Of a stretch of DNA of 64,000 bases, positions 12,052 to 34,598 are shown piece after piece. Below the pieces are notes generated by a model. It did no database searches and had not been told where the DNA came from. It saw nothing but the letters and a program-made list of their open reading frames with translations. A program made the translations under genes and the position numbers. Source of the stretch: a virus (lineage: Duplodnaviria > Caudoviricetes); the IMG/VR virus record IMGVR_UViG_3300024331_000070, positions 3,615 to 67,614 of that record. One strand, written 5' to 3'. Numbering within the stretch: position 1 is the first letter of the stretch; each line of letters starts with the position of its first letter.

Positions 12052-12308
12052 TGAGGCTGGGCCTCCGGGTGGGCTTCGGTCTTAGGCAGCTTTGCCTCAG
12101 CCTCGGCGAGCTTCTTCTTCAGGCTGGCGATCTCCGCCAAGAACTGCGTCGCATAGGCCTGCGCCTGTTCGCTGTCGGAGAGGAAGCGGAAGCGCTGGGC
12201 TTGGCAGACGCCGAGCTGGACGGCAGGGTCGAGTGGAGGAAGTTGCTGGGCCAGGGCTGGGGTGCCAAAGCCACACAGCGTAAGGATGATCCACTTTTTC
12301 ATTGCCAT
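12048..12308 (-). CDS. Exported coiled-coil protein (spanin-like?)
   Basis: Signal peptide MKKWIILTLCGFGTPALA; EIASLKKKLAEAEAKL. Confidence 0.6.
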   Translation of the reverse strand: MAMKKWIILTLCGFGTPALAQQLPPLDPAVQLGVCQAQRFRFLSDSEQAQAYATQFLAEIASLKKKLAEAEAKLPKTEAHPEAQPQ

Positions 12309-14215
12309 GTCACCAATGCTGCAGCAGCGGGAGTTTTGGGCTGCTTCCATGCGCCGCCTAAATACATCCAGAGCTGACTGTTTGTCGTGTCTACGTAGAT
12401 CGGCACGTAACCGGAACGCGCTGTCGGCACCCCCGTCGGCGTACCAGCTCCAGACGAGACATACATAAATCCGTCCGTGGCATTGGTGGCGATTGAGCCA
12501 AGCCCGACGGCGACGGTTCCAGTGTTCGTGCTGCCTTGGACGACGCCTCCGATATTCAACGAATTGGCGGTCCCGGCCGCAGCGGTGTCGATATTATAAC
12601 CAATGATGATATTGGCGCTGCCGGTCGTTAAAGAGGCGCAAGTGCTGCCCCCGATGCAGACGTTCTGATTTGCGCTGGTAACCGCTGGGGCCGCGTTATA
12701 GCCAATGGCCACGTTGGTCGATCCGTCGTGAATCGCCATGAGCGCCTGAAATCCGACGGCGACATTATTATTACCGTTGTGGAGCGAATTTCCCGGCATG
12801 ACGAACGCGGTGCCGAGACTCGAAGCGCCAACCGATGTATTTCCAGATCCGGTATTTGGCACGCTGCCATTCGCAGGCTCGGCGCCGTCGTCGCCATATT
12901 GAGACTGGAACCCAACCGCGGTGTTGTTCGATCCGCCTGTATTGTAGACCCCGGAGACGCTGCCTACCGAAGTGTTGCCAGTACCGAGACCATTGAAAAG
13001 GCCGCCCTCGAATCCGAGGCCAGTATTATTGCTTGCGGTCGTCTGGCCGTTCAAGGCCGACTGCCCCAGCGCCACGTTTCGGTTTCCTGAAATATGCAAC
13101 TGCATAGCCTGAAAACCGAGCGCCATGTTCTGGGATGCGGTCGTGTTGGAATTAAGCGCCTGGAAACCCATCGCAATGTTCGAGCCACCGGTCGTATTGG
13201 CCGTCATCACGTTCGAGCCGATCGCGACGTTCTGCGTGCCGGTAGTATTCGCTGCTAGCGTTTCGAACCCTAAGCCGATGTTGTCCGTACCGGTTGTATT
13301 GGCACCCAGATTAAAGAAACCCAGCGCAGTGTTGTTGCCGCCGGTCGTGTTGGCGGCGAGGTTGGAGCCTCCAAGAGACGTGTTGAAATTTCCCGTGGTG
13401 TTGTGCGAAAGACCACTCAATCCTACGGCGGTATTCTGGGTTCCGGTTGTATTGGCCGCCAGCGCCAAAGACCCTATTGCGACGTTATTGCTGGCGGTCA
13501 TGTTGGCGGCCAGGGCATTCGAGCCAATGGCCACGTTGTCGCTGCCGGTCGTGTTGACCGCAAGGCTGGAGGTCCCTACGGCGACATTCGTCCCGCCTGT
13601 TGTATTGGCCTGCAGCGCCTCGAACCCGACGGCGGTGTTGGATGCCCCGGTTGTGTTTGCGCCCAGGGCATTGAAGCCGATGCCTGTGTTCTGGCTGGCC
13701 GTGGTATTCGCGTTAAGGGCTGAGGCGCCGATTCCGGTGTTGAACGATCCAGTCGTGTTGGTGGCGAGGGCGCCAAAGCCAAATCCAGCGTTCTTCGAGC
13801 CTTCGCTGTTGCTGGCAAGGGCATCCCACCCAAAGGCACTGTTGCTCGCTCCGGAGGTCGTGCCTTTGAGAGCCTGGAAACCGACGGCTGTGTTCTGAAT
13901 AGCACCTGTTGTGAGGACGCCTGAAAGAGAAAGGTATCCTAGAGCGGTGTTGTTATAGAACGCCGCCACGGTCTGAGAAACGAGCGAGTTCTTACCTATC
14001 CCTATACTGGCGCCGCTTGCGGTGGAATCGATCGGGGTCGTGATGAGACCGCCCCCGGTCGCAGCCTGAACAAATGCCGTAGATGCCGCTTGGTTATTGT
14101 TTGTTCCTAGTGGCGCAGTTGGAACGATACAGTTTGGGTTAGCTGGGCCGCATCCCTGAGCAATAGCTAAGGAGGATTGCAGAAGGACGGCAACGGCCAC
14201 AAGAAAACGTCTCAT
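12299..14215 (-). CDS. Tail-fibre/adhesin-like protein with YadA-head-type 14-aa repeats and a signal peptide
   Basis: Start MRRFLVAVAVLLQSSLAIA-Q after AGGAAG; many NTAVGxxALxxNTTG repeats; C-terminal ATNATDGF...DTTNSQLWMYLGGAWK. Confidence 0.85.
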   Translation of the reverse strand: MRRFLVAVAVLLQSSLAIAQGCGPANPNCIVPTAPLGTNNNQAASTAFVQAATGGGLITTPIDSTASGASIGIGKNSLVSQTVAAFYNNTALGYLSLSGVLTTGAIQNTAVGFQALKGTTSGASNSAFGWDALASNSEGSKNAGFGFGALATNTTGSFNTGIGASALNANTTASQNTGIGFNALGANTTGASNTAVGFEALQANTTGGTNVAVGTSSLAVNTTGSDNVAIGSNALAANMTASNNVAIGSLALAANTTGTQNTAVGLSGLSHNTTGNFNTSLGGSNLAANTTGGNNTALGFFNLGANTTGTDNIGLGFETLAANTTGTQNVAIGSNVMTANTTGGSNIAMGFQALNSNTTASQNMALGFQAMQLHISGNRNVALGQSALNGQTTASNNTGLGFEGGLFNGLGTGNTSVGSVSGVYNTGGSNNTAVGFQSQYGDDGAEPANGSVPNTGSGNTSVGASSLGTAFVMPGNSLHNGNNNVAVGFQALMAIHDGSTNVAIGYNAAPAVTSANQNVCIGGSTCASLTTGSANIIIGYNIDTAAAGTANSLNIGGVVQGSTNTGTVAVGLGSIATNATDGFMYVSSGAGTPTGVPTARSGYVPIYVDTTNSQLWMYLGGAWKQPKTPAAAALVTWQ

Positions 14216-14229
14216 TGAATTCTTCCTGA

Positions 14230-15741
14230 TCAAGGCAGCACCGCGGCTCCGCCGTAGTTTGTGAAAGAGTTGGATGACAACACCACACCACCATGCGCGA
14301 TCGGATGGCAGCGCACGGTGTCTCCCACCTGCGGGGACATCGACATCGCGATAACCCCGCCGCCATTGCCAGCATCGATGATGCCGCTGATCGTCCCGAT
14401 CTGCTCCAAGGTCTGACCAGACTTGATCAGGCTGATCTGTCCGCCCGGTTTGATGCAGTGGGTGAAGTTCCTGTTTGCTGCGACGGTCAAGTCTGGCATC
14501 GAGATTTGGCTTGAGCCTGGCACGACCGTCGTTCCGTCCACAGGAAGATCGAGATTGAGCGAGGCGCCGATCGGAATGGACGTGCCGCCGCCTCCATTGA
14601 ATATCGAGTTCGCTATCGACAGCAGGTCGGTCGGAAAACTGATGTTGAGATTTATCGTCGGAGGATAGTTCACCGAGACATTCGGCGCATTGAATGTCAC
14701 GCCGGAATAGAAGGCCTGTCGGGGCGCGCAGATCGCCATCTGCATGCTGCCGCCGGTATAGCGCAGCGTGTCGACGCCGGAGCACTCGTTGAGGCCGTTG
14801 TCGATCGTCGTGTCCGTGAAGTCGACCTCGGTGAGAAGCTTGTCGACCTCGGATGCGAAGAAATGCGAGCCGGATACGATGACCAGCGGCGATTGAGAAG
14901 GAACGAACTCGCTCACGGTAACGTTCTTCAGCGTCGCCTGCGCAGTTCCCTGAACCAGCAGGAATTGGTGTGACTTGAATAGTGGATCGTTTGGCCCCGG
15001 ACCGTCTGTCGATCGTCGAGCATTCGGATTGTCCAGCATCGTGACGTTCTCTATGTAGATGGATTCGGAGAACGGCACCGGAGAGAATCCGTCGATCGGA
15101 TAGATGCGAGCCGCGCCGGCGAGGATGGGTGGTTGCGCGGACGCTTCCGGGAACGTGTCGCTGTGCGCATGCGCCAGCGGTCGGTCGAGAGTGATCACGG
15201 CGCCATTGACAGACGCAATCTTGGCGTAATCGAAATAGCGCGCGTTGGGCGGGTATCCCCCTTCGATCTGCTGATTGTAGGAGTAAACGACTGCCCATTT
15301 CCCCGGCACGAAGCTGGCCGCGTTGGTGGCATCCTTGAGCGTGACAGAGGTCGCGCCGACCGCCGCCGCCTGAATGAAAATGTTGATCGTCGGTATATGC
15401 AGCGGCGCGTCGATCGCCTCGGTCTCGAACAAGCTGCGATTGATGATGAGCGGATACGCGGCGGCGGAACCTGACGTGGCAAAGGATGCCATGTTCTGTA
15501 GGCTGGCCCCGTTGCCGAGAACCTTCAGATTGCGAATGCCCCACGTCCACCGATTGCTGGTGTACATGTAGCAGGCGCCAGCCCGCAGGTTGATCGTCAG
15601 CGGAGACGTGTTTGTTGCCTGCGTTGAGATCAGGCTGTTGCGCATAGCCAGAAGCGCCGACGTATCGTCCGCTATGCAATTGCCGGCAGCGCCGAATTGC
15701 TCTGGAGTGACGACGGTTGGCGCCGAAGCGCCGTCACTCAT
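14230..15741 (-). CDS. Tailspike-like parallel beta-helix protein (pectate-lyase-3-like start)
   Basis: VTPEQFGAAGNCIADDTSAL...; ATG overlaps the upstream TGA. Confidence 0.75.
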   Translation of the reverse strand: MSDGASAPTVVTPEQFGAAGNCIADDTSALLAMRNSLISTQATNTSPLTINLRAGACYMYTSNRWTWGIRNLKVLGNGASLQNMASFATSGSAAAYPLIINRSLFETEAIDAPLHIPTINIFIQAAAVGATSVTLKDATNAASFVPGKWAVVYSYNQQIEGGYPPNARYFDYAKIASVNGAVITLDRPLAHAHSDTFPEASAQPPILAGAARIYPIDGFSPVPFSESIYIENVTMLDNPNARRSTDGPGPNDPLFKSHQFLLVQGTAQATLKNVTVSEFVPSQSPLVIVSGSHFFASEVDKLLTEVDFTDTTIDNGLNECSGVDTLRYTGGSMQMAICAPRQAFYSGVTFNAPNVSVNYPPTINLNISFPTDLLSIANSIFNGGGGTSIPIGASLNLDLPVDGTTVVPGSSQISMPDLTVAANRNFTHCIKPGGQISLIKSGQTLEQIGTISGIIDAGNGGGVIAMSMSPQVGDTVRCHPIAHGGVVLSSNSFTNYGGAAVLP

Positions 15742-16364
15742 TTTCCCGCGAGAGTCCAGTTCGATCCATTGTACCAGACGAGCAGCTTGAGGGCGCCCCC
15801 GCCTCCGGTCACATTCGTCCCGAATGTGGTGCAGGTGGTATCGGCGCAATTGGCTGCGAGTCCATCGGTCAGGTAAGTGACCGTTCCGGCCGTTGCCGTC
15901 GGCAATGAGGCGAAAGCAACGCCCGTCGAGAGATGCCCGAGGCCGCCCACCACGCCGTTGAAAGACGCCAGATTGTTGGCTGCGGTAGAGAGATTGAAAT
16001 TTTGCGTGTTGCCGTTGTTCTGGAACTGCACAACCCCACTGGAGGAACTTGTCAGTTTGGTCCCATTACCCCAGATATAGGTTCCACCGTTAGGAATCTG
16101 GATGCTTCCATTGGCTCCGCCTAAAAGAATGGAAGATTGTACGGTAAAGACACCACCAACTGTAACTGCTCCAGACGCGCCAGCGGTCTTCGTCAGTCCG
16201 GCATCGCAGCCGGGCACGCCGTTGTTGTTGAACAGCACCCCCGTCGTCGATGTGCACCCTGAGATAACCGTAGAGCCGATGACGAGGGAGGAAGAGCCAC
16301 CCATGGTCTGGGCATTGGCGGCGCCACACAGCAGGACCGCAAGGAAATAGAGAAACCAGCGCAT
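15738..16364 (-). CDS. Fibre-like accessory protein with signal peptide
   Basis: MRWFLYFLAVLLCGAANA-Q; C-terminal FASLP...YLTDG...VTGGGG...WYNGSNW fibre module. Confidence 0.75.
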   Translation of the reverse strand: MRWFLYFLAVLLCGAANAQTMGGSSSLVIGSTVISGCTSTTGVLFNNNGVPGCDAGLTKTAGASGAVTVGGVFTVQSSILLGGANGSIQIPNGGTYIWGNGTKLTSSSSGVVQFQNNGNTQNFNLSTAANNLASFNGVVGGLGHLSTGVAFASLPTATAGTVTYLTDGLAANCADTTCTTFGTNVTGGGGALKLLVWYNGSNWTLAGK

Positions 16365-16371
16365 GGCGGGC

Positions 16372-16758
16372 CTACTGAATCTTGTAGAAGACGACATTGA
16401 CGGTCGCCGTGCCGCTCTGTGAGATCACCACGACGTTCGAGAGCGGATTGACCGTGGCGTAGTAGGGCACGTTCGTTGCGACGGGGATTCCGACCGATGT
16501 CGTCGGGTTGGTCCCGTCATCCCGGATGCGGATGGCGTTCGATTCCGGAACGATGAAGGCGTAGAACGCGCCAGCGGGAATGCCGCCGCTGCAAGTCGAG
16601 ATCGAGACCGCGGTCGTTACCGAGAGTTGGCAATATCCGAGGCTGATGAGCGGGGACTGAAACGTCCAGGCCTTCATGGGAAGGGATTGCGCGAATGCCG
16701 CGCAGGTCATCCATAGCGCAGCGCCAATCGCGCCCGCGGCAGCGAGCCACTTTCGCAT
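16372..16758 (-). CDS. Small beta-rich virion-accessory protein with signal peptide
   Basis: MRKWLAAAGAIGAALWMTCAAFA-Q; IRIRDDGTNPTTSVG. Confidence 0.75.
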   Translation of the reverse strand: MRKWLAAAGAIGAALWMTCAAFAQSLPMKAWTFQSPLISLGYCQLSVTTAVSISTCSGGIPAGAFYAFIVPESNAIRIRDDGTNPTTSVGIPVATNVPYYATVNPLSNVVVISQSGTATVNVVFYKIQ

Positions 16759-16777
16759 TTTCATGACTCCGTATTGG

Positions 16778-17122
16778 TCAGAGGAGTTCGAGGACCGTGA
16801 GCGATCCGGTTCCACCAGACGCGATGCCATTCCATCCGCAGTTATAGGAAATATTCGTATTGGGATCGGAGACGAACGGCACTTGCCCCCCAGGCAGAAC
16901 AATGACGCCCTGGCCTGCAACGGCCGTCAGGTTCGAGGGGACGACGTAGAAGGTGATGTTCGTGGTCGGATTGACGAAGACGATCCCGCGCCGGTTCTGG
17001 TTTGCCCCGATGACCGCGACCGAGGCCGCGCCCACGCTCACGACGGAGGCAACGGGAGACGTGATCGGCACATTTATCCGCAACTGTGCGGTGGGGAGGG
17101 GTGCGTTGTAGGCGGTCATCAC
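16778..17122 (-). CDS. Small beta-rich virion-accessory protein
   Basis: 114 aa, ANQNRRGIVFVN motif; no signal peptide. Confidence 0.7.
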   Translation of the reverse strand: MMTAYNAPLPTAQLRINVPITSPVASVVSVGAASVAVIGANQNRRGIVFVNPTTNITFYVVPSNLTAVAGQGVIVLPGGQVPFVSDPNTNISYNCGWNGIASGGTGSLTVLELL

Positions 17123-17123
17123 G

Positions 17124-19064
17124 TCACCCCATGATTTCTGAGAGCTCGACGGTCGAACCGCTGTTGGCGCTCGGATAAGTCAGCGTCGCGCCACCAGCAA
17201 TCTTGCCCTGGAAATTGTAGGTGACCGCTGTAGTCACGCCAGGCGCATCCCAGGCGAGAATCGATGCGGGCACCGTCTGGCTCGCGCTGGTGCTGATGGG
17301 GTTTCCGATCAGCGTGCTCGACCTTGCGAATTGCAGGAATGCCAGCGCCGCTCCATTGGTCACGCTCCCATGAGAGAGCAGGCGGATGAGGTTGGGTGCA
17401 GACGTTGGCGTGATGGCACAGGTTTGACCACTAGAGAGGTCCGCAAACGTCGCGCTTGTGGTGGTGCCAGAGCTGGTGGTCGAACAGATCGGCGCGACCT
17501 GGACCACATCCCCAGGCTTGCGACATTGATTCGGAGACAGGCAGGACTGCAATGTCGTTGGCGCGCTCGCCCAGGTGCCGGCGGTAGCAAGTCCGGAGCC
17601 GTAATCGGCATAGCCGACGATGCGAATGGCGTCATTGCTGACAGCGGAGGCGGTATAGAGCGTCCCCGCAGATGTTGCCCCAGCGGTGATGCCGGTGCCG
17701 GCTTTCTGGATCGTCTCCCAGCCGGCGCAAGGATAGATAGCGCCCGTTGAAATCGAGCACGTCGCGACACCGAGAACAGGCGTCCCGGAATTGTAGGCGA
17801 CGAATATCCAGACACGGAACGGGACGTTGCTCGAGGAGGTCCCGAGGCTCGCCCCGGACGGGATGGTGATGGAGAGCCCGCCGGCCGGGATTGCCCATTT
17901 ACTCGCACCGGAGGTCAGCGTGGTGTCGCGGAACGACAGTTCGGGCGCATTGAGGACGATAGTGAGGGCGCTTGCACTTGCACTCGCCGACAACGACCCC
18001 TGCGAGGAATTGCAATCAAGCCACCACGTCCCGGTCGCGGAAGCGTTGGTGTAGACCCGGCACGTCGTCCCCTGCGGGATCGCGATACCGGTTCCAGATG
18101 CGACACCCTGGAAGTTGTCGGCCGCATCGGGTGTGACCGTGGCGACGCCGGCGAGGGCCTGCACCCAGAAGCCGAAGCCGTTGAAATAGGTGCTCGACGC
18201 CTTGCCCAGGGTATAGGTCAGGGGACCCGAGGCAATCCGCTGGGTGAGATGGAAATTACAGGTGACGGACTGGTTGGTGGAGTCCTGTGCCGTAGCCAGG
18301 ACGACCCGGGCATTGCCGGAGCCGTCGTCCCCCAGCGATGGGCCCCCACAGGATCCTGAATTGATGTTCTCCACCGCCATGGAGCCGAGGCCGAAGGCGG
18401 TGCGGCCGGCGGAGAGCGAGGCAGCCCCGACCACGGGGGTCATCGCAGAGGAGATGACGCCAATCGGCGCCGTGGTGCACGCGATGAGACTGTTGCCGGT
18501 GGAGTCGAAGCATACCCCCTGCCCTGCCGCGGCTGCGGCTGCAGGAAGCGGATCCGGCGGCGTCGAATTGGTGATGTTGGCGACGATCGCCCGCGATGAG
18601 CGCTCGTTGATCTGCTGGCCCTGCATGACCCCGGTGTCGAGGCCAGTTTCGGCCCCCTTGCCGAGGATCGCGATCGAGGCCTGGTTCTGGAGGGTGATTG
18701 CCTGGGTGAGGGGCAGCGTGCGGTAGATGGTGAGCGTCGACCCGGCGGGGATCGGTGTTCCCGAGGGATTGTAGGTGACGGTGCCACCGAGGCCCCACAG
18801 CGCGCCCTGGACGGGGGCGTTGAGCGATATCTGGTATTGAGTGGCGCCGGAACCTTGCGTCAGGACGGTCTCGTTGCCCGAGGAATCCGTGAGGATGACG
18901 GTGATATAGTTCGCCGCCACCCCGATGAAGTTGAAGGTGAAAGCGGTTTGCGAGCCGTTGCCGAGCGCGATAGTCTTGTTCGTGCTGCTGTTGACGGTCG
19001 AGTCCGCCGGCGTCGCCAGAACGAGCGCGACAACAGCAAGCAGCGTGCAGAGGAATCTGCGCAT
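17124..19064 (-). CDS. Tail fibre with T7 gp17-type N-terminal adaptor domain preceded by a signal peptide
   Basis: GNGSQTAFTFNF...GGTVTY...GSTLTIYRTLPLTQ...ETGLD; position directly after the largest ejection gene. Confidence 0.85.
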   Translation of the reverse strand: MRRFLCTLLAVVALVLATPADSTVNSSTNKTIALGNGSQTAFTFNFIGVAANYITVILTDSSGNETVLTQGSGATQYQISLNAPVQGALWGLGGTVTYNPSGTPIPAGSTLTIYRTLPLTQAITLQNQASIAILGKGAETGLDTGVMQGQQINERSSRAIVANITNSTPPDPLPAAAAAAGQGVCFDSTGNSLIACTTAPIGVISSAMTPVVGAASLSAGRTAFGLGSMAVENINSGSCGGPSLGDDGSGNARVVLATAQDSTNQSVTCNFHLTQRIASGPLTYTLGKASSTYFNGFGFWVQALAGVATVTPDAADNFQGVASGTGIAIPQGTTCRVYTNASATGTWWLDCNSSQGSLSASASASALTIVLNAPELSFRDTTLTSGASKWAIPAGGLSITIPSGASLGTSSSNVPFRVWIFVAYNSGTPVLGVATCSISTGAIYPCAGWETIQKAGTGITAGATSAGTLYTASAVSNDAIRIVGYADYGSGLATAGTWASAPTTLQSCLSPNQCRKPGDVVQVAPICSTTSSGTTTSATFADLSSGQTCAITPTSAPNLIRLLSHGSVTNGAALAFLQFARSSTLIGNPISTSASQTVPASILAWDAPGVTTAVTYNFQGKIAGGATLTYPSANSGSTVELSEIMG

Positions 19065-19089: not shown

Positions 19090-22000
19090 TCAGTGCGCGG
19101 GCGCGAGGCCCTTCTTGACCTTCTTCGCCTCGACGGCTTTGCGCTGGATGTCGTTCTCGCTGCCGTAGGCGTTCATCATCACGGTCTTCGCGGCCTGTTC
19201 GCGGGCCATGGTGATGAGTTTGTGCATGTGATCGGCGCGGGCGGCGGGAGCCATCTCATTGACGCCCGGCGTCTTCACGAAGTTGTCCAGCAGCATCTTG
19301 GCGGTGCGTCCGGCGATGCGCGCGAAGTCGTCGTGCTGCTGGTCGGTGAGTTCAACTCCGCGAATCTTGCGCGGGAACGGCGCCGACTTGAAGTGCAATT
19401 CGTCCATCATCCTCGCCACGGGATCGTTGGCGTAATTCTGCATCGCATTCGACGACGGGATCGGCTCGCCGAACTGATCGCGCCGCGGCATCAGGGATTG
19501 CGACCAGAACGGTATCTTGGCCTGTGCCTGCTTTTTGATTTCCTCGGAAAGCGAACTGGCGCGGGTCTCGCGCTGATAGGGATCGGCCAGCGGATTCGGA
19601 ACGAAACCGAACAGTGTCGGCGTATGGGTCACTTGGCCCAATCCAATCGAAAACGGCACCCAGTTCGTGACCATGTTGGCGACGTAGTTGTCGCCGTACT
19701 CCTCATGATGAAACACGGCGTCGATCATGTCCTTGACACCGCGCAGCCAGGTGTCGTCGAGCACCGATTTTTCGAACGCGGAAATCCAGGAGGCGACGAG
19801 ATTATGCTCCTTCTCGTTGCCCGGATCCGGAAATCCGTGCGTCGATTCGACGGCATTGGCAGCAATCGCCATCTGCATGCCGAGCATGCCGAGGCCTCGG
19901 TATGGAATCGTGACGTTGCCGATGGTGATGCTGTACGGGTTGTGCGTCAGGCGCCAGGCGCGCTGCTGCTGCGGATCGCTCGGGCCGGCGCCGGTCACGA
20001 GGCCTTCGGCGGCCATCTCTCCGACCATCCCCATCAACGCCGTGCTGGCGACAATGCTGGCCATCTGGGTATTGCGCGCCTCGACGCCGTTCTTGCCGGA
20101 TATATTGTCCCGCACCTTCTGCATGAAGAGGCCGGCTGGCGTGTTCTCGATCGCCGATGATGCGATCTGGGTGTCGATCTTGGTGAACGGCAGGATCAGC
20201 TTGGTGACGATATTATGGTTGGCGAACCGGCCGATCTTGGATTCGAGGCTCGCGTAGTCCGCGGGCGCCATGTAGAGGTCTTTGCGTGCCACCTTTACGG
20301 CAGCGTCCATCATCTCCGGCGTCGGCCGGTTGCCGAGATCGGCGACCCGGTTGACGAAATCGGTCCCACTCAGCCCCTCGCGCATCGCCTGCCGGTAGGC
20401 GAGTTTTGCGATTTCCTGTTCGTAGCGCACTGCGCTCGAAAACCCGTGAATGGCCCCGACTGCTTTTCCTGGATAGCCGATCACCTGGCCGATCTTGCCC
20501 GGGATGGGCGGAACGACGGGCTGGGACTCGAACAGGCTGGGCGGTTGCTCGCCGGGAAGATGCGGCGTGTTGCCGGTGCGCCAGCCCTCCCCGGCCGCCT
20601 TCCATCCCTCGCGCGACCCCTTGGCGAGCGCATAGATTTCCGCCCCAGCCTCTCCGAAGAAGATGCGACGCTCGTCCTGCAGTCGCGCCAGGGTAGCCGC
20701 AGTATCGATGCCGGCGGCAACCAGCGTCTTGGTAGGAGCCCACAGCGCCGTCAGGACATTGCCGACAAAGTACCTCGTATGCGTGACTGGCCCGGAGATC
20801 AGTGAGTTGACGTAGTAGTAAAGGACCGCCTGCTTGATCTTGCCGTTCGCCGTGTCGTGCACTAACTGCGAAATCTGCCGCGGCGATGTCAGGTTCGAGC
20901 CAAACCGCGCCATGTCCTGCAATTGAAACAGCGTCCGCCCGGTGTTGGCCTTGAGCCAGTCATTGAGCGTCGCCGCCACGTCGCTGCCGGGAATCTCCTC
21001 TCGAAAGGCCCTCAAAGCCCGACCGGCCTCCGCCGTCGCCTGGGACACCTTCCCCTGGATCATCTCGTGGCGGGCGATGGCTTCGGCGAGTTTAACGGTC
21101 GCGTCGATATCGCCGTCCTTGGCGGCGATCATCGCATCGCGGACGGTCGTGGCAGACTGGACGAGCAGCCTTCTGGCGGCCCGGATTTCCTCTACGTTGA
21201 ACGCTTCCCCGATCTTCTTGCGATCGAGCCATGCCGGGTCCATGCCCAAAGCATCGGCAAGCTCGATGGTCTGGCCATCGGAGAGAACGCCGCGGCGCTC
21301 TTCGAGGAAGTCGTTATTGTTGCGTGCGGCGGTCCGGATGACCGCATCCACGTCTTCGGGCTGGTTGAGCTTGTCGAGCCGGATGTTGCCGGCTTTGTCG
21401 ATCAGCGGGGTTCCGGGGTTTCGGAATCTGAGGTTTGCGCCGGCGGGGACTTCTCCTGCGCCCGCTGATGTTCCAGCGCCTTCACCCGCAGCTTGATTTC
21501 CGCCCGGCAGGACTGCTCCAGCTTGTGGATCAGGTCCACTTTCTCCGCCGACTGGCCGGGGCGCATTGCCATCACGATCAGGTTGCGGAGCTCCTGCCTC
21601 GCGCCGTCGAGTTTCATCTGCAACGTCTTTAAGTCTGGCATTCTCTTCATCTACCAGATTTGAGGCCGCTGCGCTATCTCGTTCGGCTTGGATATCTTCC
21701 GCCACGGGATGGGCGCGCTCGTGTGGAGTAGCTTCCGCGCGGGCCGCGTGCTCTTCGGCAAAGCCGGGGATGGTTTCCCGCTCCGGAGCGATCACTGTCC
21801 GTTCCGGCTCCGTGGCCAGCATCCGGTCGAATACGGCCCGGATGTCATCATTGATAGGCGACTTGAGCGCGAGAACGGTCTTGTAGATGCTGGTCAGCCA
21901 CGCCTTGAACTGGGCGAAGACGCGGGCCAGGGCCTTCGAGGGCGCGACGCCTTCCATGAGGTAGGTCTCAAACCCGCGGGCGAACTTCTCATGGGCGGCG

Positions 22001-24576: not shown

Positions 24577-27032
24577 TGCGAGACCGGAACCTGCGGGCCT
24601 GCCGCGGGTGCAGCCGTGATCCAGCCGCGCTCACGCCCGATCCGGTTTGCCTCGGCGCCGGTGATCTTGCCGGCATCAACCGCGGCCTTGAGGTCCGCAT
24701 AGGCCCCGATCTTGCTGGCATCGAACGGCGGCGCCGGCGGCGCGGAACTGAAGACATGGCCGATGGCGCTCGCCACGCTTGAGAAGAACCCCGGTGGCTG
24801 GTCCTGCACCTTGTCGGCGAATGCCTGCGCGGGCGTCGGTTTGAACCGATCGATCAACTTGCCGATGTAGTCCGGGCTCTCGGGATTGAGCAATTGCTGC
24901 GGCGTCTTTCCGGCCTTCTTGCCTTCGTCGTAAGCAGCGAAGGCTGCCGCCTGGAACTTGAGATACCGATCCTGGCCCTTTGGATCGGGTATTTTCAGTT
25001 CCTCATTTTCAAAAGTGATTTGCGGCTTGGCGACGTGCTCGAAGAATTGCTTCTTCATCTGCGCTTCGGCGTCACCCTCTGGCGTGCCCCTCTCCTGGAT
25101 CATCTTCACCGCACGCTCGTAGCCCGGAAGCGTCAACTGCTTTCCGACCAGGGGCACGAGCTTGTTCGGATCGGTGATCCGTCCGGGATCTCCGGGATCG
25201 GCGTGGATGGCGCGGAACACTTCCAGGAAGCCGGGGCCGAGTGTCTTGTCCATGCCGCGGCCTTGGGCGGCAGTGTTCAACTGCGAAATCATGCGCTCGA
25301 TGCCTTGCGGCGTCAGCGCCTTGTTGTTCACGATATCCATCTGGGTCACAGTCGGATGATCGCTCCAGATGTTGCGCAGGATGGCGTCTTCTGCACCGTC
25401 GTTCGCCTGCTTCCTGGCTTGCTCCTCCAGCTTACGGGCGCGCTCCTCATCAGCCGCCTGCCCGTGCTCGACCTCGTACATCTTGGTCGCATGCGCAAAG
25501 GCTTCCTGCTGCGCCTGGGGATGGTCGATCAGGTAGGGGTCGTCCCTGATCTGGGCCATGACCTTGGCCTTGTCGGGAAGCTGGTCGGCCTGGATGGCAG
25601 CCACGGCCGCGCCGCGATTGAGGGGCACGACATTATTGCCGCCGACGCTTGCCGGCACCACGTCATTCGCTGCGGGCGCGCCACCGCTGTAGAAGCGCTC
25701 GGTCCATAGCCGCACGAAATCCCCGCCGGTCACTGTGTTCACGCCACCGGGGAACTGCGCCTTCATTGCCGGTGTCATGTTGCCCCAGATGGCGCGCCTG
25801 GCCCAATCGTCGCCCTTCTGGCGGCCCTCCCCGGTCGCGGCCATGTTCTCCCAGGCCGGACGGTCGGGGTGGCCGAGCTGCATCACGGCACCGCCCAAGC
25901 CCTGCTGGTGGGCGAGGTAGTATTCCGACCCGCGGGGCTCACGTCCGAGCACACGGAACAACTGGTCCCGGTTCTCTTCGTTCTCCTTGCCGAGTGCCCG
26001 GGTCTGCGCACCGACATCGGTGCGGTTGGCGTCGGTGATGCCGTATTTGGCCTCCTCGCGGGGACCGAACTGCCCGAGGCCCCTATTCGATCCTGTGACC
26101 GCATTCGGGTTGTTGTTGGACTCGATCTGGAATACCCGCGAGGAATACCCAGGAGGGAGCCCATAGGGCCGCTCCAAGTAGGTATCGGCGATGCGCCGCC
26201 CATCGAACTTGCTTGCGGGAACCCGGAGGAACCGGTCCACCTGGACGCGGCTCGCCGCATCCATCTTGTCCTCCTGGGAATGGTAGAAGTCGATCGCGCG
26301 TTTTACGCTCGCTGGCGTTCCGTCCGACACCATGCTCTCGACGATGTGCTGTACGTTCTTGCCGCGGTTCTCGGCGATCTTCTGGTCGAACGCAGGACCG
26401 GAGAGACCTTCGCGCGTCCAGTGATTGCGGGATTCCTGGTCGGACTGGAACAGGTTGGTGGAGACGTTGTAGTCACGCGCGAGATTTGGCTCGGTGCTCC
26501 GGCTGGCGAACAGCGCCGCCGTGCTGCCGTAGCTCTCGGCGCCCTCTTTCGCCGTGGTCCGTTCCCATGCGTCACTTTGAGTCGCGGCATGGTGCGACCC
26601 GAGCGCATAGAAGCGATCCATCTGCGACCGCGTCTCGCGATCAAGCAGGCTTTGCTCATAAGGATTGCGGGTCTGGCCGCGGGTCTCTTCATAGAGAGAG
26701 TTGAGATCGTTTTTGTATTTCTGAAGACCGTTCTTGGCGTCGAGCCCCTTGGTCTCCAGATAGGATTCGGTCAGGTCCCCGGCTTGATTATTGAAATGAG
26801 TGTTCTGCTGGGCGACGTTGGTCTGGCTGTCCAGGCGCTCTTTTGAGAATTCCGCCTGGAACGCAACATCCCCCGCGTGCTCGACATCCTTCCCGAAGCC
26901 CTCGACTGCCTGTGCGACCCGTCCGCCGAATGCCCCCGGCCGCGCATCGACGCGCAGGAAGTCGTTCCCCGGCGCTCCCCGAGGGGCGACGGTCGGATAG
27001 GGCTCGTAATCGAATGCGTATCCCGGCATCAC
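24573..27032 (-). CDS. Internal virion protein with lytic transglycosylase-like domain
   Basis: FQIESNNNPNA...RGLGQF...YYLAHQQGLGGA. Confidence 0.8.
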   Translation of the reverse strand: MMPGYAFDYEPYPTVAPRGAPGNDFLRVDARPGAFGGRVAQAVEGFGKDVEHAGDVAFQAEFSKERLDSQTNVAQQNTHFNNQAGDLTESYLETKGLDAKNGLQKYKNDLNSLYEETRGQTRNPYEQSLLDRETRSQMDRFYALGSHHAATQSDAWERTTAKEGAESYGSTAALFASRSTEPNLARDYNVSTNLFQSDQESRNHWTREGLSGPAFDQKIAENRGKNVQHIVESMVSDGTPASVKRAIDFYHSQEDKMDAASRVQVDRFLRVPASKFDGRRIADTYLERPYGLPPGYSSRVFQIESNNNPNAVTGSNRGLGQFGPREEAKYGITDANRTDVGAQTRALGKENEENRDQLFRVLGREPRGSEYYLAHQQGLGGAVMQLGHPDRPAWENMAATGEGRQKGDDWARRAIWGNMTPAMKAQFPGGVNTVTGGDFVRLWTERFYSGGAPAANDVVPASVGGNNVVPLNRGAAVAAIQADQLPDKAKVMAQIRDDPYLIDHPQAQQEAFAHATKMYEVEHGQAADEERARKLEEQARKQANDGAEDAILRNIWSDHPTVTQMDIVNNKALTPQGIERMISQLNTAAQGRGMDKTLGPGFLEVFRAIHADPGDPGRITDPNKLVPLVGKQLTLPGYERAVKMIQERGTPEGDAEAQMKKQFFEHVAKPQITFENEELKIPDPKGQDRYLKFQAAAFAAYDEGKKAGKTPQQLLNPESPDYIGKLIDRFKPTPAQAFADKVQDQPPGFFSSVASAIGHVFSSAPPAPPFDASKIGAYADLKAAVDAGKITGAEANRIGRERGWITAAPAAGPQVPVSQ

Positions 27033-28252: not shown

Positions 28253-28263
28253 TCTTATCCTCC

Positions 28264-31200
28264 CTACTCGCCAGGGCTCCACGTCGGGACCAACGCGAGC
28301 ACATTCATGGGAAACGGCTTCGTCTGCTGCGCCGCCACCATGCCCGGGCTCGCCTCCCATCCATTCCATGATTGCCAGTCATCGTCCACGTTGACATATT
28401 TATCCCCCGTAAAGAGCGGGAGTGCGGCGGAGGGAACGTTGGATTGCGGCACTTCCTGGATGTCGACGAGATTGGTCCAAGGCACTTCCTGCTGAAAGTC
28501 GAGGGCGGAAGCCACTGGCTGGTTGGCGCCGACCTGAACCCCGCGGCTCTTTTCCAATCGGATCGTTGCACCGTTGATCTTCTTGCGCTTGCCCTGGATG
28601 GTGCCCATGGACTGCATCTCCAGGTGCATCGCCTGCAACTGGGCAATGAAGGGCAGCCCGATGGTGACCGCGCTCGCGGGCGCCGGGAGCGTCACCGTGC
28701 CATTGGTCACGGTGGTCAAGGGAATCTCGGAACCATCGGCAATGCCGTACACCTGCATGCCTTCGAGGTGGAACAGGTTGGTAATCTCCGACACCGGGGT
28801 AGTGATGCTCCAGGTCCCCGGTGGCGCTGGAACTGGAAGCAGGTTCGGATCATTGGGGATGGTTTGAAGAATCGGCGCCGTGATCGAGGCGAGGACCTGC
28901 GATGGATTTGCCACCGAGGAAACGACGGCCTGACCACCTCCGATCCGAATCACATCTCCCGCCACGGTGTCGGCGAACACCGGCTGATCGGCATTGAAGG
29001 CGACGTTCTGCGACACGAAGGGGACGAGCGTTCCCCCGGCTCCATTCGGGTCGCTGATGGTGACATAGGTTCCCGGCGAGTAGCCTTCGCCTTGGGAAAC
29101 GATGGTGAATCCCGTGAGCACGCCGCCGGACTGCGTGAGCGTGATGACGGCACCCGAGCCGGTGCCCTGGGGATCGATGACTTGTGCCGCGGGATCGGTG
29201 TAGCCCTGCCCGGTGGTGGCGAGATAACCCCCGGTGATGTCCCCGGGACCTTCGGCCGCCATGGCGGACAGCGTTGCATTGGGCGTCGGCTGAGCAAGAG
29301 ACAGGCCGGCATCCACGCACCATGGATCTTCCGGCCCGAACCACAGCCGGTCGTCCATGCGTTCGATGTAGTACACCCACTGAGCGGGCCCGGGGATGTA
29401 GCGCTTGATCACAAAATACGGCGCATTCACCGGCGGCTCGGTCGCGACCTCATTGCCGACGACGAGGCCGTTGGTGTCATGCCTGGCCCAGCCCTTGAGC
29501 TTTTCTTCCTTGTCATAGGTGAACGACAGGAACTTCCCATCGCTGCGGGTCGCCCAGACGATCTTCCACGGGATCTGCGCCCAAGCCCAGGACACCAACG
29601 TAAAACCATCGAAGAGGTGATTGGACAGCACCGTCACGTCTTCGCCGGCATAGATATTGTTGAAGAAGTTGTACTGGAGGTCGCGGACGGTGTAGCCGAG
29701 CTGCTGGACGTAGAGGATATCGTAGTTGATCCGGAGCGGCTTCACGGTGGGAGAGTAGCCGTTCGATTCCTGGGGCTGCGCGCTCTCCGAGGCCGGCGTC
29801 AGAGGAGACCCCGCACCACCGGCACCGGCGACCTGCCAGGTGTCCAACCCCGTACCGGCCAACAGTCCGCCTGGCATGGGGGTGAGCCACTGGACGCCGT
29901 TGACCTGGGTGCCCCATGGGGTGAGCGTGACCGCATCGTCATCTACCGGTGGGGTAGATGCATCGAAGTTCGTGTAAGCCCCGGTCTTCGAGGTCCAGAG
30001 CGTGTCCGGGTTGTTGATACTGTCAGCGTAGACCCGGCGCTGCTGGAAATAGTCTGCGACAGACGGATAGGTCCCGGTCTGCGGCCCGATGTCTGGCGTG
30101 AAGGCGGCACCCGTACCACCGCCGCCATCCGCGATCAGAATCGTGTCCGTGTCGACGTAGCCTTGGCCGCCGTTCTGCACGATGATGGCGACCACTGCGC
30201 CGGACACGACGACAGGCGCCAGCACGGCACCGGAGCCGGTTGCGCTGACCATGATCGCCGTGGTCGAGGCCTGGACATAGCCGGAGCCACCAGCGGTTTC
30301 CGTCGCGCTGATGACCTGCCCGCGCGCGAACGGATCGAGATGGAGCGGAGGCGACTTCACGGGATCGTTGAGGATGTTGGTGTTGACGAACTGCGTCCCG
30401 AAGGCGGAGCCGAGGTAACCGAACGCCGCCCCCACGGGGACCGGCGTATCGTATGAGGGGGGCGCTTGGTACACGTTGTAATAGGCCGCCCCGATCACCG
30501 AGGCCCAGGTGATCGTGTGTGATCCCTGCACAAGAGAAATGTTGTTGGAATTGGTTATGTAGGCGATGGGCGAGGCAATCGACTCTTCGCCCGTGGTTCG
30601 ATCGACGGCGGTGACGCAATAGGCAAATTGGGTGGAAACGGTGGCAGTGACCGAGGTGGTCGCGGTGCATGTAGCCGGCGCATCGATGCCCGCAGCGAAC
30701 GTGGTCTGCGTGAACGTCCAGCTGTTCGCAGCGAGCCGCGCGAGATCGATCGGCGGGTATTCCGTCCCGGTCTGCTGGTTGACACAGCACAAACTCATCA
30801 CGTCGGCTGACTGCACGACCTTGAGGTAAGGCAGGTCTGCGAGTGTATAGGGCGAATCGTAGCTCGTGAATACCCGCGAGAATGTCCCGCCCGAGCTGTA
30901 CGCGCCGTACGCCGACGAATTGACCGCATTCCCGAAGGTGTCCGTCAGGGTGAACGTGCTTGCGGTCGCGTTCTGGACGATGAAGGTGCGCGAATTGATC
31001 TGCGTGATGCCGACGAAGCCGGCCGCAAACACCCAATCACCGTTAGCAAAGCCATGGGCTGGGGCGGTTGCAACGGCCGGGTTGGCATTGGTAACCCCCG
31101 TCGCCGCCACTGGGCTTTCCAGCACGTAACCGCCATTTGCGATCACACGCATGTAGGTCGCGCCGAGAGCGTTGGCGCCGAACTCCAGCAGATAGGATTG

Positions 31201-31437
31201 GAAGATCGAGAACTGAAATCTGACCAGCTTCGGCGGAATGGAAGATGGCGAAGCAGGCGTCAGAGATTGCCCGACCCACATCGTTCCGGCTCGGGAAGAA
31301 GCCGGACCGCGATAGGAGACGAAGCAGTTCCGCATGACGGACGCGCCGCCGTAGAACCATTCGCCGTCGGTTCTGCCCCACAGGGATGGGGACAGCTCGC
31401 CCTTGTTGAAAGTCGGCTTGATCGAGGTGATGGGCAT
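28264..31437 (-). CDS. Tail tubular protein B (nozzle, T7 gp12-like) with inserted domains
   Basis: TFNKGELSPSL.GRTD start; YFQQRRVYA; GWARHDT; YIERM. Confidence 0.88.
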   Translation of the reverse strand: MPITSIKPTFNKGELSPSLWGRTDGEWFYGGASVMRNCFVSYRGPASSRAGTMWVGQSLTPASPSSIPPKLVRFQFSIFQSYLLEFGANALGATYMRVIANGGYVLESPVAATGVTNANPAVATAPAHGFANGDWVFAAGFVGITQINSRTFIVQNATASTFTLTDTFGNAVNSSAYGAYSSGGTFSRVFTSYDSPYTLADLPYLKVVQSADVMSLCCVNQQTGTEYPPIDLARLAANSWTFTQTTFAAGIDAPATCTATTSVTATVSTQFAYCVTAVDRTTGEESIASPIAYITNSNNISLVQGSHTITWASVIGAAYYNVYQAPPSYDTPVPVGAAFGYLGSAFGTQFVNTNILNDPVKSPPLHLDPFARGQVISATETAGGSGYVQASTTAIMVSATGSGAVLAPVVVSGAVVAIIVQNGGQGYVDTDTILIADGGGGTGAAFTPDIGPQTGTYPSVADYFQQRRVYADSINNPDTLWTSKTGAYTNFDASTPPVDDDAVTLTPWGTQVNGVQWLTPMPGGLLAGTGLDTWQVAGAGGAGSPLTPASESAQPQESNGYSPTVKPLRINYDILYVQQLGYTVRDLQYNFFNNIYAGEDVTVLSNHLFDGFTLVSWAWAQIPWKIVWATRSDGKFLSFTYDKEEKLKGWARHDTNGLVVGNEVATEPPVNAPYFVIKRYIPGPAQWVYYIERMDDRLWFGPEDPWCVDAGLSLAQPTPNATLSAMAAEGPGDITGGYLATTGQGYTDPAAQVIDPQGTGSGAVITLTQSGGVLTGFTIVSQGEGYSPGTYVTISDPNGAGGTLVPFVSQNVAFNADQPVFADTVAGDVIRIGGGQAVVSSVANPSQVLASITAPILQTIPNDPNLLPVPAPPGTWSITTPVSEITNLFHLEGMQVYGIADGSEIPLTTVTNGTVTLPAPASAVTIGLPFIAQLQAMHLEMQSMGTIQGKRKKINGATIRLEKSRGVQVGANQPVASALDFQQEVPWTNLVDIQEVPQSNVPSAALPLFTGDKYVNVDDDWQSWNGWEASPGMVAAQQTKPFPMNVLALVPTWSPGE

Positions 31438-32410: not shown

Positions 32411-32457
32411 TGCAGGGACGCATTCGACATTTGGTGAATCTGGGGAGGTCAATAGCT

Positions 32458-32649: not shown

Positions 32650-32716
32650 CAGAAAATCTCCGGGAAGCCCGCCATGAGCAGCGCGACGAAAAACAGGCCG
32701 AACATCGCGTCTATGC

Positions 32717-33284: not shown

Positions 33285-33288
33285 GGCA

Positions 33289-33606: not shown

Positions 33607-33803
33607 CCCTTTCCGTACCAGTTCCGCTTCTTGTGCATTCCGATCAGCGTTTCCGCGAGGCGTGCTTGCTTGCCGGTCTTGCCGCTGTCGCCTGCGTGCT
33701 CGGCTGCGAACTGGCGTGTGGATTCGCCGGCGGCTTCGGCTTTCTTCTTGAGCGCGCCTGGATGCTTAATCGCGCCGGCAATCCATTTCTTCGATTTGGC
33801 CAT
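33603..33803 (-). CDS. Small basic phage protein
   Basis: KWIAGAIKHPGAL...GKQARLAETL. Confidence 0.7.
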   Translation of the reverse strand: MAKSKKWIAGAIKHPGALKKKAEAAGESTRQFAAEHAGDSGKTGKQARLAETLIGMHKKRNWYGKG

Positions 33804-33808
33804 GGTCC

Positions 33809-33997
33809 CTACTCCGGAAGAAACCCAACGCGATCTCGAACGCGAAAAATTCGTCGGCCGCGCTCGTCCAATAAACCGGTATCCGTCACATCATCGGTGG
33901 CTATTACATCGATGGCCTCAGGGGAGACCTTCTGTTCCCATGCCGCGTCGTCCGCGATATATCCGCGCGTCAGATATTTCATTTTTTGTCGTACCAC
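33809..33997 (-). CDS. Hypothetical protein
   Basis: 62-aa ORF filling the gap between late genes. Confidence 0.35.
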
Positions 33998-34155
33998 TTC
34001 GCGGACCTCGAGCGCGGCTTCTTCTTCTCGGGCAGTTTCCCGCCGGGGTCGGCGTCGGCGAATTCCTTGCCGACCGACTTCGGGATGCCCAGCGTGGACT
34101 TGCCTGCGGCAGCCGCAAACATGGCTCTGCGTTGCGCTTCCGATACGGCCGGCAT
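33979..34155 (-). CDS. Small basic phage protein
   Basis: [32 protein letters not shown]. Confidence 0.7.
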
Positions 34156-34157
34156 GG

Positions 34158-34598
34158 CTACTGCTGATAGCCGTAGGAGTTCACATCGACCGCCGATGCG
34201 GTGCCGTCCGCAGTCGTGGTCACGGTGATCGCTGTGTTGGCAGCGCTCGCGGGGATGCAGGGACTGTAGTTGTGCGTGATGGAAGCGCCAGAGGCGGCAG
34301 AGGCGAGCTGATAGACCATCGACGATCCGATGAGCCCCGCAACGGTGATCGGGCCGACCGCAGCAGTGCCACCGATAGCCGAAACATTCCAACCGCAGAT
34401 GTATGTGGTCTTATTTGTCACGGCCGCGAGCGTGCCCACCACGGCGCCCGTGGTGCCCGTCGAGTTACCGGTGATGACGGTTTGAGCCAGAGGCCCATAG
34501 GCGGAGGGTCCTGGCGGGTTGACCTGCGCCAGGAGTGTTCCGAGCGCGCCCGCACCGAACAGGGCGGCGAGACCACAAGCAATCAGCATTCTTCGCAT
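34158..34598 (-). CDS. Beta-rich virion-accessory protein with signal peptide
   Basis: AAGGA ribosome site; [25 protein letters not shown]; Thr/Ala/Gly-rich. Confidence 0.75.

Follow-up and report, generated by a model that had tools for sequence, protein, structure and literature searches.

Sec-type leaders and paired cysteines on the host-recognition proteins of a soil podovirus suggest fibre maturation outside the cytoplasm

Introduction

In the textbook account, tailed phages are assembled entirely in the cytoplasm. Some phage genes are known to rely on the host's Sec pathway, among them those for Lom and Bor of lambda and for the coat proteins of the Ff phages, tailless phages that are assembled at the membrane. 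In the two-fibre podoviruses of the Klebsiella KP32 type, a short conserved peptide at the N-terminus serves to dock the second receptor-binding protein. A cultured podovirus of the Pachyviridae, Cellulophaga phage phi18:3 (NC_021794), has three proteins, gp085, gp086 and gp087, that were detected in virions by MS/MS, a detection from which neither cleavage nor true incorporation follows. Domain D1 of the tailspike Dpo31 of Carin-1 is located at the virion base (PMC13317679). Matrishin et al. 2023 (PMC10367356) named capsid, spanin and unassigned genes as leader-bearing in Porphyromonas phages, and the paper on phage Milano reported that virion disulfides can form after release and made no mention of the periplasm. 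Our literature search found no paper describing Sec-exported, disulfide-paired tail fibres in tailed phages.

Here we analysed a 64-kb window, the whole of which belongs to a soil-derived temperate podovirus. Relatives of this phage are harboured by Bradyrhizobium and Pseudolabrys genomes, including those of culturable strains that carry leader-bearing homologs; a search of the phage collection found no cultured close relative.

Results

Most leader-bearing genes form a late-operon block ending at the lysis cassette

The genes considered are as follows, in window coordinates.

Endolysin: 9343–10572, minus strand; N-terminal membrane helix, Pro-rich linker and GH108 domain
Holin: 10846–11166, minus strand; Pfam PF23987, E = 3.3e-8
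K: 11641–12051, minus strand; 136 aa, leader MRKALLALLLLAGPANA followed by AG, 5 Cys in the mature part
H: 12048–12302, minus strand; 84 aa, leader or membrane anchor MKKWIILTLCGFGTPALA followed by QQ, coiled-coil-like tail
A: 12299–14215, minus strand; second fibre, 638 aa, leader residues 1–19, 4 Cys
B: 14230–15741, minus strand; 503 aa, leaderless, without docking domain, frame from third-position GC and sequence
C: 15738–16364, minus strand; short fibre-like protein, 208 aa, leader residues 1–18, mature start Gln, 4 Cys
D: 16372–16758, minus strand; 128 aa, leader residues 1–23, mature start Gln, 2 Cys
E: 16778–17122, minus strand; leaderless small protein with a predicted jellyroll, 114 aa, AlphaFold2 model pLDDT 85
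F: 17124–19064, minus strand; primary tail fibre, 646 aa, leader residues 1–22 (window 18999–19064), mature start T23
Two internal virion proteins: 19090–27032, minus strand; neither has a leader, and one contains a transglycosylase-like segment
Tail nozzle, tubular protein B type: 28264–31437, minus strand; PHROG 376, E = 1.7e-136, no leader detected
G: 34158–34598, minus strand; 146 aa, leader approximately residues 1–24, mature start Gln, 2 Cys

We found Sec-type leaders on seven late-operon proteins, K, H, A, C, D, F and G, each opening with a basic stretch ahead of a hydrophobic core of about 8–15 residues. Leaders occur in six of the eight consecutive genes from 11641 to 19064 and in one of the 73 other gene calls (Fisher p = 6e-7), as called by a heuristic detector built for this analysis that missed D, which was counted by eye and from its homolog. 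Third-position GC confirmed the frames of the leader ORFs. Five of the seven (A, C, D, F and G) had been reported by the first-pass annotation, and all five were recovered on the minus strand with the same ends and N-termini; it had overlooked the leader genes H and K as well as two leaderless genes within the block, E and B. Its mature cysteine counts of 4, 4, 2, 12 and 2 for A, C, D, F and G were reproduced, the totals being 4, 5, 3, 13 and 3 with one Cys inside the leader in four proteins, and its description of mature starts as mostly Gln fits the four chains that begin with Gln and the one that begins with Thr. Purine-rich ribosome sites, reported before four of the five ATGs, were seen before those of A, F and G, and the gap between the stop of D and the ATG at 16364 proved to be 7 nt, close to the 8 nt given.

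The eight genes occupy the minus strand, flanked by the internal virion proteins on one side and the lysis genes on the other; neighbours abut or overlap, and the genes form a single packed late-operon segment ending at the lysis cassette. Promoter- and terminator-like sites from 19064 down to 11641 were no commoner than in shuffled sequence: consensus scans, which other promoter types may escape, found 3 promoter-like sites where 2.8 were expected and 5 terminator-like sites where 9.1 were. An independently expressed moron of the lambda lom type has its own promoter and terminator and lies apart from the late operon; here the genes abut and the sites are near or below shuffle expectation in scans that may miss other promoter types. 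The endolysin, with its membrane helix, is predicted to be routed to the periplasmic side as well; matches to peptidoglycan-binding and CHAP domains in it were weaker and fell below Pfam's cut-offs.

Other export signals were considered and rejected. Three window leaders contain Arg-Arg, but homologs have KR, TR, QR or RK in its place, and the median leader lengths of 20 and 25 residues and the strongly hydrophobic cores also speak against a Tat signal. A lipoprotein signal for signal peptidase II was rejected from the +1 residue, Gln or Thr in A, C, D, F and G, and the LTLC of H is non-standard as a lipobox.

The docking fibre has the same mature N-terminus with and without a leader

Residues 22–162 of F make up a virion-attachment domain homologous to D1 of Dpo31. 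When a profile of the F family (32 homologs) was compared with Dpo31, chain residues 1–130 were matched from residue 1 (E = 2.5e-25), and by tblastn the pelagiphage fibres match F starting at residue 23; F also matches PHROG tail protein families (E = 6e-6). In the late operon its gene follows those for the internal virion proteins, and F alone in the 64-kb window carries a virion-docking domain.

Among 114 parsed F homologs, 98 have a variable leader ending in AxA directly before a conserved Thr, and the remaining 16 are leaderless and start Met-Thr exactly at +1, as do approximately 45 more distant viral relatives. The leader-bearing +1 Thr and the leaderless Met-Thr start thus coincide, and the same mature N-terminus is reached by both routes. 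Of the 98 leaders, 87 have Ala and 7 have Ser at −1, 79 have Ala and 12 have Val at −3, and 95 are followed by Thr at +1; Lys or Arg stands among the first 8 residues in 95, and the median best 8-residue hydropathy is 3.05. Homolog alignment, proposed earlier as a check on leader conservation, bore it out: the leader is kept as a feature while its sequence varies up to the AxA end. Docking-domain residues are invariant between leader-bearing and leaderless members of the family. Several relatives carry a leaderless docking fibre alongside leader-bearing fibres, suggesting that export is not all-or-nothing for the fibre set.

Paired cysteines accompany the leaders

The mature chain of F holds 12 Cys, that is, six Cys pairs. 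In the F family the pairs 185–196 (58 sequences), 239–269 (46), 335–351 (25) and 508–514 (37) are gained or lost together and never singly. Covarying pairs are coupled to the leader: at least one is present in 86 of 99 leader-bearing fibres and in none of 16 leaderless ones, a link that is inflated by relatedness, with at least six leader-state changes on the tree and 3 supported independent contrasts, which carry no significance alone. Cys density in related loci is 1.56 per 100 aa for leader proteins, 69 of 85 of which have an even count, compared with 0.56 per 100 aa for leaderless proteins, of which 41% have an even count.

A conserved module follows the leader of the second fibre

The mature N-terminus of A is the module QGCGPANPNCIVPTAP..AASTAFV (QGCGPxNPNC...), followed by about 30 repeats of 14 residues. 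A variable leader precedes this module at every one of 13 viral loci, and of the best 150 cluster representatives 116 show the same arrangement, with a different leader each time. These 116 proteins are 99 to 1205 aa long, with a median leader length of 20; Ala occupies −1 in 106 of them and −3 in 95, Gln is the +1 residue in 115, and 111 have an even number of mature Cys. A matches PHROG tail-spike and virion structural families (E from 2e-61 to 8.5e-48). That A is a trimeric autotransporter adhesin was rejected, as it matches no Pfam family at E ≤ 0.01 and its best matches are the phage families.

The C-terminal tip of C (..VWYNGSNWT) is common to fibres of many phages, and leaderless relatives of this tip lack its Cys pair. 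The D homolog in one related locus (L096) keeps the Cys pair behind a different leader. The E family lies directly upstream of a leader-bearing fibre gene in approximately 30 related loci; fold matches of the AlphaFold2 model were not decisive, and E may be the partner of the conserved QGCG module. B had no sequence match in Pfam, PHROG or PDB, and its structural neighbours in the Atlas carry the pectate-lyase-like family PF12708 (TM 0.55–0.61), so that B is probably a right-handed beta-helix enzyme acting on polysaccharide. H is possibly a lysis accessory, and a search for relatives of K found none. The G family is phage-only and its gene adjoins a radical SAM gene; the homolog in another locus (L080) carries its own leader, and a CGW motif is common to G and E. 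Nothing here supports the earlier suggestion that G is a decoration protein.

Discussion

Well supported by sequence comparison are the predicted export, cleavage and disulfide bonding of the leader-bearing fibres. AxA-ending leaders, leaderless starts at +1 and leader-linked Cys pairs all favour the export and oxidation steps of the scheme put forward by the first-pass annotation. Its last step, attachment after membrane rupture, we infer because F has the sole docking domain of the window and because a cultured phage has leader proteins in its virions; of the whole sequence of export, cleavage, oxidation and joining, this late joining to particles is the most conjectural. In the mechanism that we propose, the head, portal, nozzle and internal proteins would be built in the cytoplasm, and the host-recognition proteins (the docking fibre F, the second fibre A, the short fibre C and probably D) would be made as Sec substrates and cross the inner membrane late in infection. 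Signal peptidase I would cut after AxA, leaving Thr23 in F and Gln in the others, and the host Dsb system would add local disulfide bonds. The fibres would meet particles only once holin and membrane-tethered endolysin breach the envelope, whereupon F, by way of its N-terminal domain, would attach to the tail, with the other fibres joining afterwards. That Sec-exported, oxidised host-recognition proteins join particles at envelope breach seems to us evenly balanced between true and false; against it count the leaderless E and B inside the block, the leaderless docking fibres that accompany leader-bearing ones in several relatives, and the formation of virion disulfides after release, as in phage Milano. 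More tentatively, and a little short of an even chance, assembly may be divided between two compartments, with the head and tail core cytoplasmic and the whole recognition set, including the sole docking fibre, exported by Sec, trimmed, disulfide-bonded in the periplasm and added at the lysis breach, E perhaps partnering the QGCG module.

The proteins might instead be exported and cleaved without ever becoming virion parts, their site of action being the periplasm or, as the first-pass annotation also allowed, the cell surface. They could, for instance, mask or destroy receptors, which would save progeny from being trapped or would block superinfection, or they could serve as adhesins. A model for the latter would be the MAT fibres of Bdellovibrio, which are displayed on the cell surface and have a signal peptide, a conserved domain at the N-terminus and exchangeable tips (PMC10769870). 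Matrishin et al. interpret phage leader proteins as host-surface modifiers (PMC10367356), nothing fibre-like is seen in D, G, H and K, and the leaderless docking fibre retained beside leader-bearing ones in some relatives also fits a surface role. We nevertheless regard this reading as rather unlikely: F retains a virion-docking domain in which some residues never vary, whether or not the family member has a leader, the phage would otherwise be left without an anchored fibre since F is the only docking gene of the window, the genes are packed into the late operon without extra promoter-like sites, and no route across the outer membrane is evident. A dual fate, in which part of the pool stays cytoplasmic and builds the virion while the exported part is accessory, would reconcile the docking domain with the leader, and export capacity may be limited late in infection. 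This is unlikely to a greater degree, as neither the F nor the A family has a conserved internal start codon near the cleavage site, a cytoplasmic copy would retain the leader at an end that leaderless relatives keep free, and the strict pairing of cysteines argues for an oxidised functional form.

The leaders could also stay uncleaved, as membrane anchors or structural N-terminal helices, or be removed in the cytoplasm by a phage protease. In the F family there are some long leaders with charged residues (for example ..ILAEIADLAWLSAVRA), and the phage encodes a head protease-like protein. Against this stand Ala at −1 and −3 in approximately 90% of two large families, often with Pro just before the site, the short hydrophobic cores and the basic N-terminus in 95 of 98 leaders; for uncleaved anchors, moreover, the positive-inside rule would put the protein body outside the membrane anyway. 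We therefore hold this reading to be very improbable. Finally, high-GC DNA gives long spurious open frames, and the leaders would be an untranslated artefact if the true starts lay downstream. No specific support for this was found, and it is hardly credible given that the mature N-termini of F and A have no start codon, that open, hydrophobic, AxA-ending extensions are kept in more than 200 diverged homologs, that ribosome-binding sites stand before the ATGs, and that third-position GC supports the frames.

If receptor-binding proteins routinely mature in the periplasm as we propose, lysis timing and envelope breach would become an assembly step and host Sec and Dsb functions would be phage dependency factors. 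Fibres could then hold disulfides, possibly stabilising them in soil, and the annotation and engineering of receptor-binding proteins (fibre swaps, recombinant depolymerases) would have to allow for a cleaved leader.

Comparison with known systems

The leader proteins of Porphyromonas phages, Lom and Bor of lambda and the Ff coat proteins use Sec as the window proteins are predicted to do, but none is a tail fibre of a tailed phage. A resembles the second fibre of the KP32 type in its short, highly conserved N-terminal module, its freely exchanged bodies and its place beside an anchor-bearing fibre, whereas the KP32-type proteins are leaderless and assembled in the cytoplasm. Like the window fibres, the MAT fibres of Bdellovibrio bacteriovorus (Caulton et al. 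2024, PMC10769870) have a signal peptide, an adjoining conserved domain and swappable tips and form phage-fibre-like trimers; they are cellular proteins on the predator's own surface and not products of a phage late operon, and their N-terminal domain, compared by its published description, is beta-rich and about 130 aa long, against a module of about 35 aa here.

The phi18:3 proteins gp085–087 are likewise encoded by consecutive late genes just before the endolysin, and each has a Sec-type leader followed by Gln. They are annotated as structural or tail proteins from virion MS/MS, and the other MS-detected proteins of that phage have no leaders. The host of phi18:3 belongs to the Bacteroidota, no sequence similarity to the window proteins was detected, and gp085–087 lack paired cysteines (0, 1 and 3 Cys); the record is silent on leaders. 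The N-terminal attachment domain of F is shared with Dpo31 of the Cobetia phage Carin-1, the HTVC010P-type Pelagibacter fibres and the T7 gp17 type, and leaderless podovirus fibre genes, like that of F, are placed after the internal virion proteins. Those fibres start Met-Thr, are leaderless and have few Cys, whereas F has the same domain behind a 22-residue leader and contains six Cys pairs.

Genes of the phage and its leader-bearing block

The window DNA came from a soil metagenome, and the phage that it encodes is a temperate podovirus with the following genes.

46631-49153, minus strand, terminase (late gene)
44270-46117, minus strand, portal (late gene)
40609-41502, minus strand, protease or scaffold-like protein (late gene)
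39491-40528, minus strand, major capsid protein (late gene)
38868-39410, minus strand, Bbp16-like protein (late gene)
34158-34598, minus strand, G, leader-bearing
28264-31437, minus strand, nozzle (late gene)
24573-27032 and 19090-24576, minus strand, two internal virion proteins (late genes)
17124-19064, minus strand, F, tail fibre, leader residues 1-22
16778-17122, minus strand, E, leaderless, 114 aa
16372-16758, minus strand, D, leader-bearing
15738-16364, minus strand, C, leader-bearing
14230-15741, minus strand, B, leaderless, 503 aa
12299-14215, minus strand, A, second fibre, leader residues 1-19
12048-12302, minus strand, H, leader-bearing
11641-12051, minus strand, K, leader-bearing
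10846-11166, holin, after the block from F to K
9343-10572, minus strand, endolysin with an N-terminal membrane helix, after the block from F to K
1635-2654, integrase

The first-pass annotation had described predicted N-terminal Sec signals (leaders) on F, D, C, A and G. Their N-termini and Cys counts proved to be as described, and third-position GC confirmed the frames. The same measure revealed B and E, which had gone unlisted, and H and K were found as two further leader-bearing genes. The block runs F, E, D, C, B, A, H, K with neighbours abutting or overlapping, and promoter- or terminator-like sites within it were not commoner than in shuffled sequence. Leaders were present in six of the eight block genes and in one of 73 other gene calls, namely G (Fisher p = 6e-7). 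A Pfam search with all leader proteins gave no family match.

Named homologs of fibre F were found in Bradyrhizobium and Pseudolabrys genomes, with leader-bearing relatives in prophages of Bradyrhizobium sp. RT9a, Bradyrhizobium sp. PMVTL-01 and Pseudolabrys taiwanensis. A related locus, L001, lies on a contig of 3.9 kb that binning assigned to a gammaproteobacterial (Steroidobacteraceae) MAG and encodes a fibre 90% identical to F; because the isolates named as carrying homologs belong to Bradyrhizobium and Pseudolabrys, this assignment may be mistaken or the range of hosts may be broad. In the endolysin the N-terminal helix is strongly hydrophobic, the linker is long and rich in Pro, and a GH108 domain is accompanied by weaker peptidoglycan-binding and CHAP domain matches below Pfam's cut-offs; it resembles a periplasmic enzyme tethered to the membrane more than a soluble one.

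Leaders precede putative docking regions in both fibres

From residue 23 onwards, F aligned with PHROG profiles of tail proteins and with the tail fibres of pelagiphages. In an F-family profile of 32 homologs, query residues 22-162 matched chain residues 1-130 of Dpo31, the tailspike of Cobetia phage Carin-1 (E 2.5e-25); this is its D1 domain, which is located at the virion base (PMC13317679). When the attachment-domain profile was run against the six frames of the window, F was the sole matching ORF. A single scan of genome contigs for relatives gave three loci. We retrieved 120 F homologs from the database and parsed 114, and found a leader in 98 and a Met-Thr start in 16. The 98 leaders had a median length of 25 and Lys or Arg near the start in 95; the counts around the predicted cleavage site were 87 Ala and 7 Ser at position -1, 79 Ala and 12 Val at position -3, and 95 Thr at position +1. 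Across 76 related viral loci, close relatives of F carried leaders, and about 45 more distant relatives had Met, Val or Leu immediately before the same Thr. Leaderless starts thus abut the residue at which the leader would be cut, so initiator-Met removal and signal peptidase cleavage would yield one mature N-terminus. Some loci (L017-L025, L030, L036, L046, L049, L053) encode a leaderless docking fibre, yet have 2-4 leader-bearing, Cys-paired proteins just upstream.

Fibre A matched phage tail-spike and virion structural families as well as tail fibres of pelagiphages, roseophages and cyanophages; a PDB sequence search gave no match. Its mature N-terminus, QGCGPxNPNCIVPTAPxGTNNNQAASTAFV (the QGCG module), was 60-90% identical across 13 related loci, in all of which an unrelated leader stood before it and a body of 354 to 1016 aa after it. 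Searching residues 18-60 against 1.84 billion cluster representatives gave 453 matches; of the best 150, 116 carried the module behind a leader (median length 20). These 116 proteins, of 99 to 1205 aa, had Ala at -1 in 106, Ala at -3 in 95 and Gln at +1 in 115, and 111 had an even mature Cys count. The three genomic contexts examined were podovirus structural modules. This sequence pattern is that of a docking module kept constant in front of receptor-binding bodies that can be swapped. A trimeric autotransporter was considered for A and dropped, as its best matches were phage tail-spike and virion families and it had no Pfam match. We also noted QGCG-module proteins upstream of leaderless docking fibres (L020:3233-5233, L049:8721-9995), and 5 to 22 copies of the 25-residue motif VPTAPxGTNNNQAASTAFV inside metagenome proteins of 670-2876 aa (P0121-P0128, P0134, P0135 and others). 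Homolog alignment, proposed in the first-pass annotation as a check on leader conservation, showed that leaders are kept as a feature in both the F and A families.

Leaders accompany paired cysteines

Among the related loci, mature leader-bearing proteins had 1.56 Cys per 100 aa with an even count in 69/85; leaderless proteins had 0.56 per 100 aa and 41% were even. Within the fibre family of the viral loci, leader-bearing members had a median of 8 Cys (even in 14/16) and leaderless members a median of 2 (even in 23/46), a difference in Cys with Mann-Whitney p = 8e-5. An alignment of 121 fibres revealed the pairs 185-196 (in 58), 239-269 (46), 335-351 (25) and 508-514 (37), with no singletons; 436-446 is a further predicted pair. 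At least one pair was present in 86/99 leader-bearing fibres versus 0/16 leaderless ones, a figure inflated by relatedness. A phylogeny-aware test found at least six leader-state changes on the tree and three supported independent contrasts, two in the same direction and none opposite, which are too few to reach significance.

Other proteins of the block and its surroundings

The C-terminal tip motif of C is common to leaderless fibres of many phages, which lack its extra Cys pair. One viral homolog of D was found, with its own leader and an identical Cys pair, and a homolog search with K gave no relatives. H and K, which carry no functional assignment, were considered as possible spanins. Small predicted-exported proteins with odd Cys counts recur near the fibre and lysis genes (K, L004:9461-9838, L016:16283-16612, L024:17363-17680), and in K two Cys stand side by side (..KCCSLADG..). 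B, which has neither leader nor docking domain, looks like a pectate-lyase-type beta-helix along its full length; it had no match in a PDB sequence search.

Relatives of E have no leader and are 108-122 aa long, or about 230 aa in tandem forms. In about 30 loci (for example L005:11932-12258 and L093:9654-10001), three of which came from the QGCG-module search alone, a leader-bearing fibre gene directly follows a gene of this family. An AlphaFold2 model of E was a small jellyroll (pLDDT 85), with matches to PM2 spike P1 (Z 9.1), Ena pilus subunits (Z 8.2) and cupins that are too close together for function assignment. Complex prediction with three copies each of E and A residues 20-80 scored 0.17 against a mark of 0.32, a result that weighs neither for nor against such a complex. 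One E paralog (L056:11709-12086) has its own leader, and the CGW motif of the family also occurs in G.

G had been put forward as a possible decoration protein, for which our analysis provided no supporting evidence. Its family consists of phage-only clusters, and the one viral homolog found has its own leader and lies downstream of capsid genes. G adjoins a B12-binding radical SAM gene (34972-36384, minus strand) inside the head-tail region, where a weakly glycosyltransferase-like gene (36408-37064, minus strand) is also located. These two genes adjoin G, predicted to be exported, and a 120-aa gene (34613-34975), and may serve to modify some product of the phage or its host. Downstream of fibre genes in other loci, leader proteins of 229-276 aa recur (L005:16524-17354, L007:16787-17608, L008:8346-9035, L016:18498-19235, L056:19363-20085); their mature chains start AD..(K)APP and they may be outer-membrane cargo genes.

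Likely export and proposed joining to particles

On every sequence criterion the leaders qualify as Sec and signal peptidase I substrates. Tat and lipoprotein signals were considered and dropped: the Arg-Arg of three window leaders gives way to KR, TR, QR or RK in homologs, and residue +1 is Gln or Thr, not Cys, in A, C, D, F and G. Homolog comparison indicates that the leaders evolve like signal peptides and accompany disulfide-type Cys pairs. Because of these properties, export, cleavage and oxidation of the leader proteins are likely. The fibres would be added to particles after the envelope is breached, the simplest reading because F keeps its virion-docking domain without a leaderless paralog. 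Classical work with P22 and T4 has added tailspikes or fibres in vitro to particles that were already complete. The whole chain, from export through joining after breach, we hold to be evenly poised between right and wrong. Of the original proposal that these virion-operon proteins assemble outside the cytoplasm, export is thus well supported by sequence comparison and assembly on particles remains a proposal.

Other explanations were weighed. A purely periplasmic or surface role, in which the leader proteins would be exported and stay off the particle, is rather unlikely beside the docking domain of F, and a split protein pool is less probable again. Leaders that remain uncleaved seem quite improbable beside the Ala-rich cleavage sites, and mis-called starts, with the frames confirmed, hardly credible.

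Comparison with known systems

Our literature search turned up no tailed phage with tail fibres described as leader-bearing. The nearest paper, on Porphyromonas phages, notes leaders for capsid and spanin genes and for genes of unknown function (PMC10367356), and the MAT fibres of Bdellovibrio are a cellular parallel (PMC10769870). In Cellulophaga phage phi18:3, the annotation of gp085-087 comes from MS/MS of virions, and each of the three starts with a Sec-type leader, whereas the portal and seven further proteins detected by MS have none. These three proteins are the sole experimental hint that leader proteins may travel with particles, and joining of exported fibres to particles is testable in culturable hosts.
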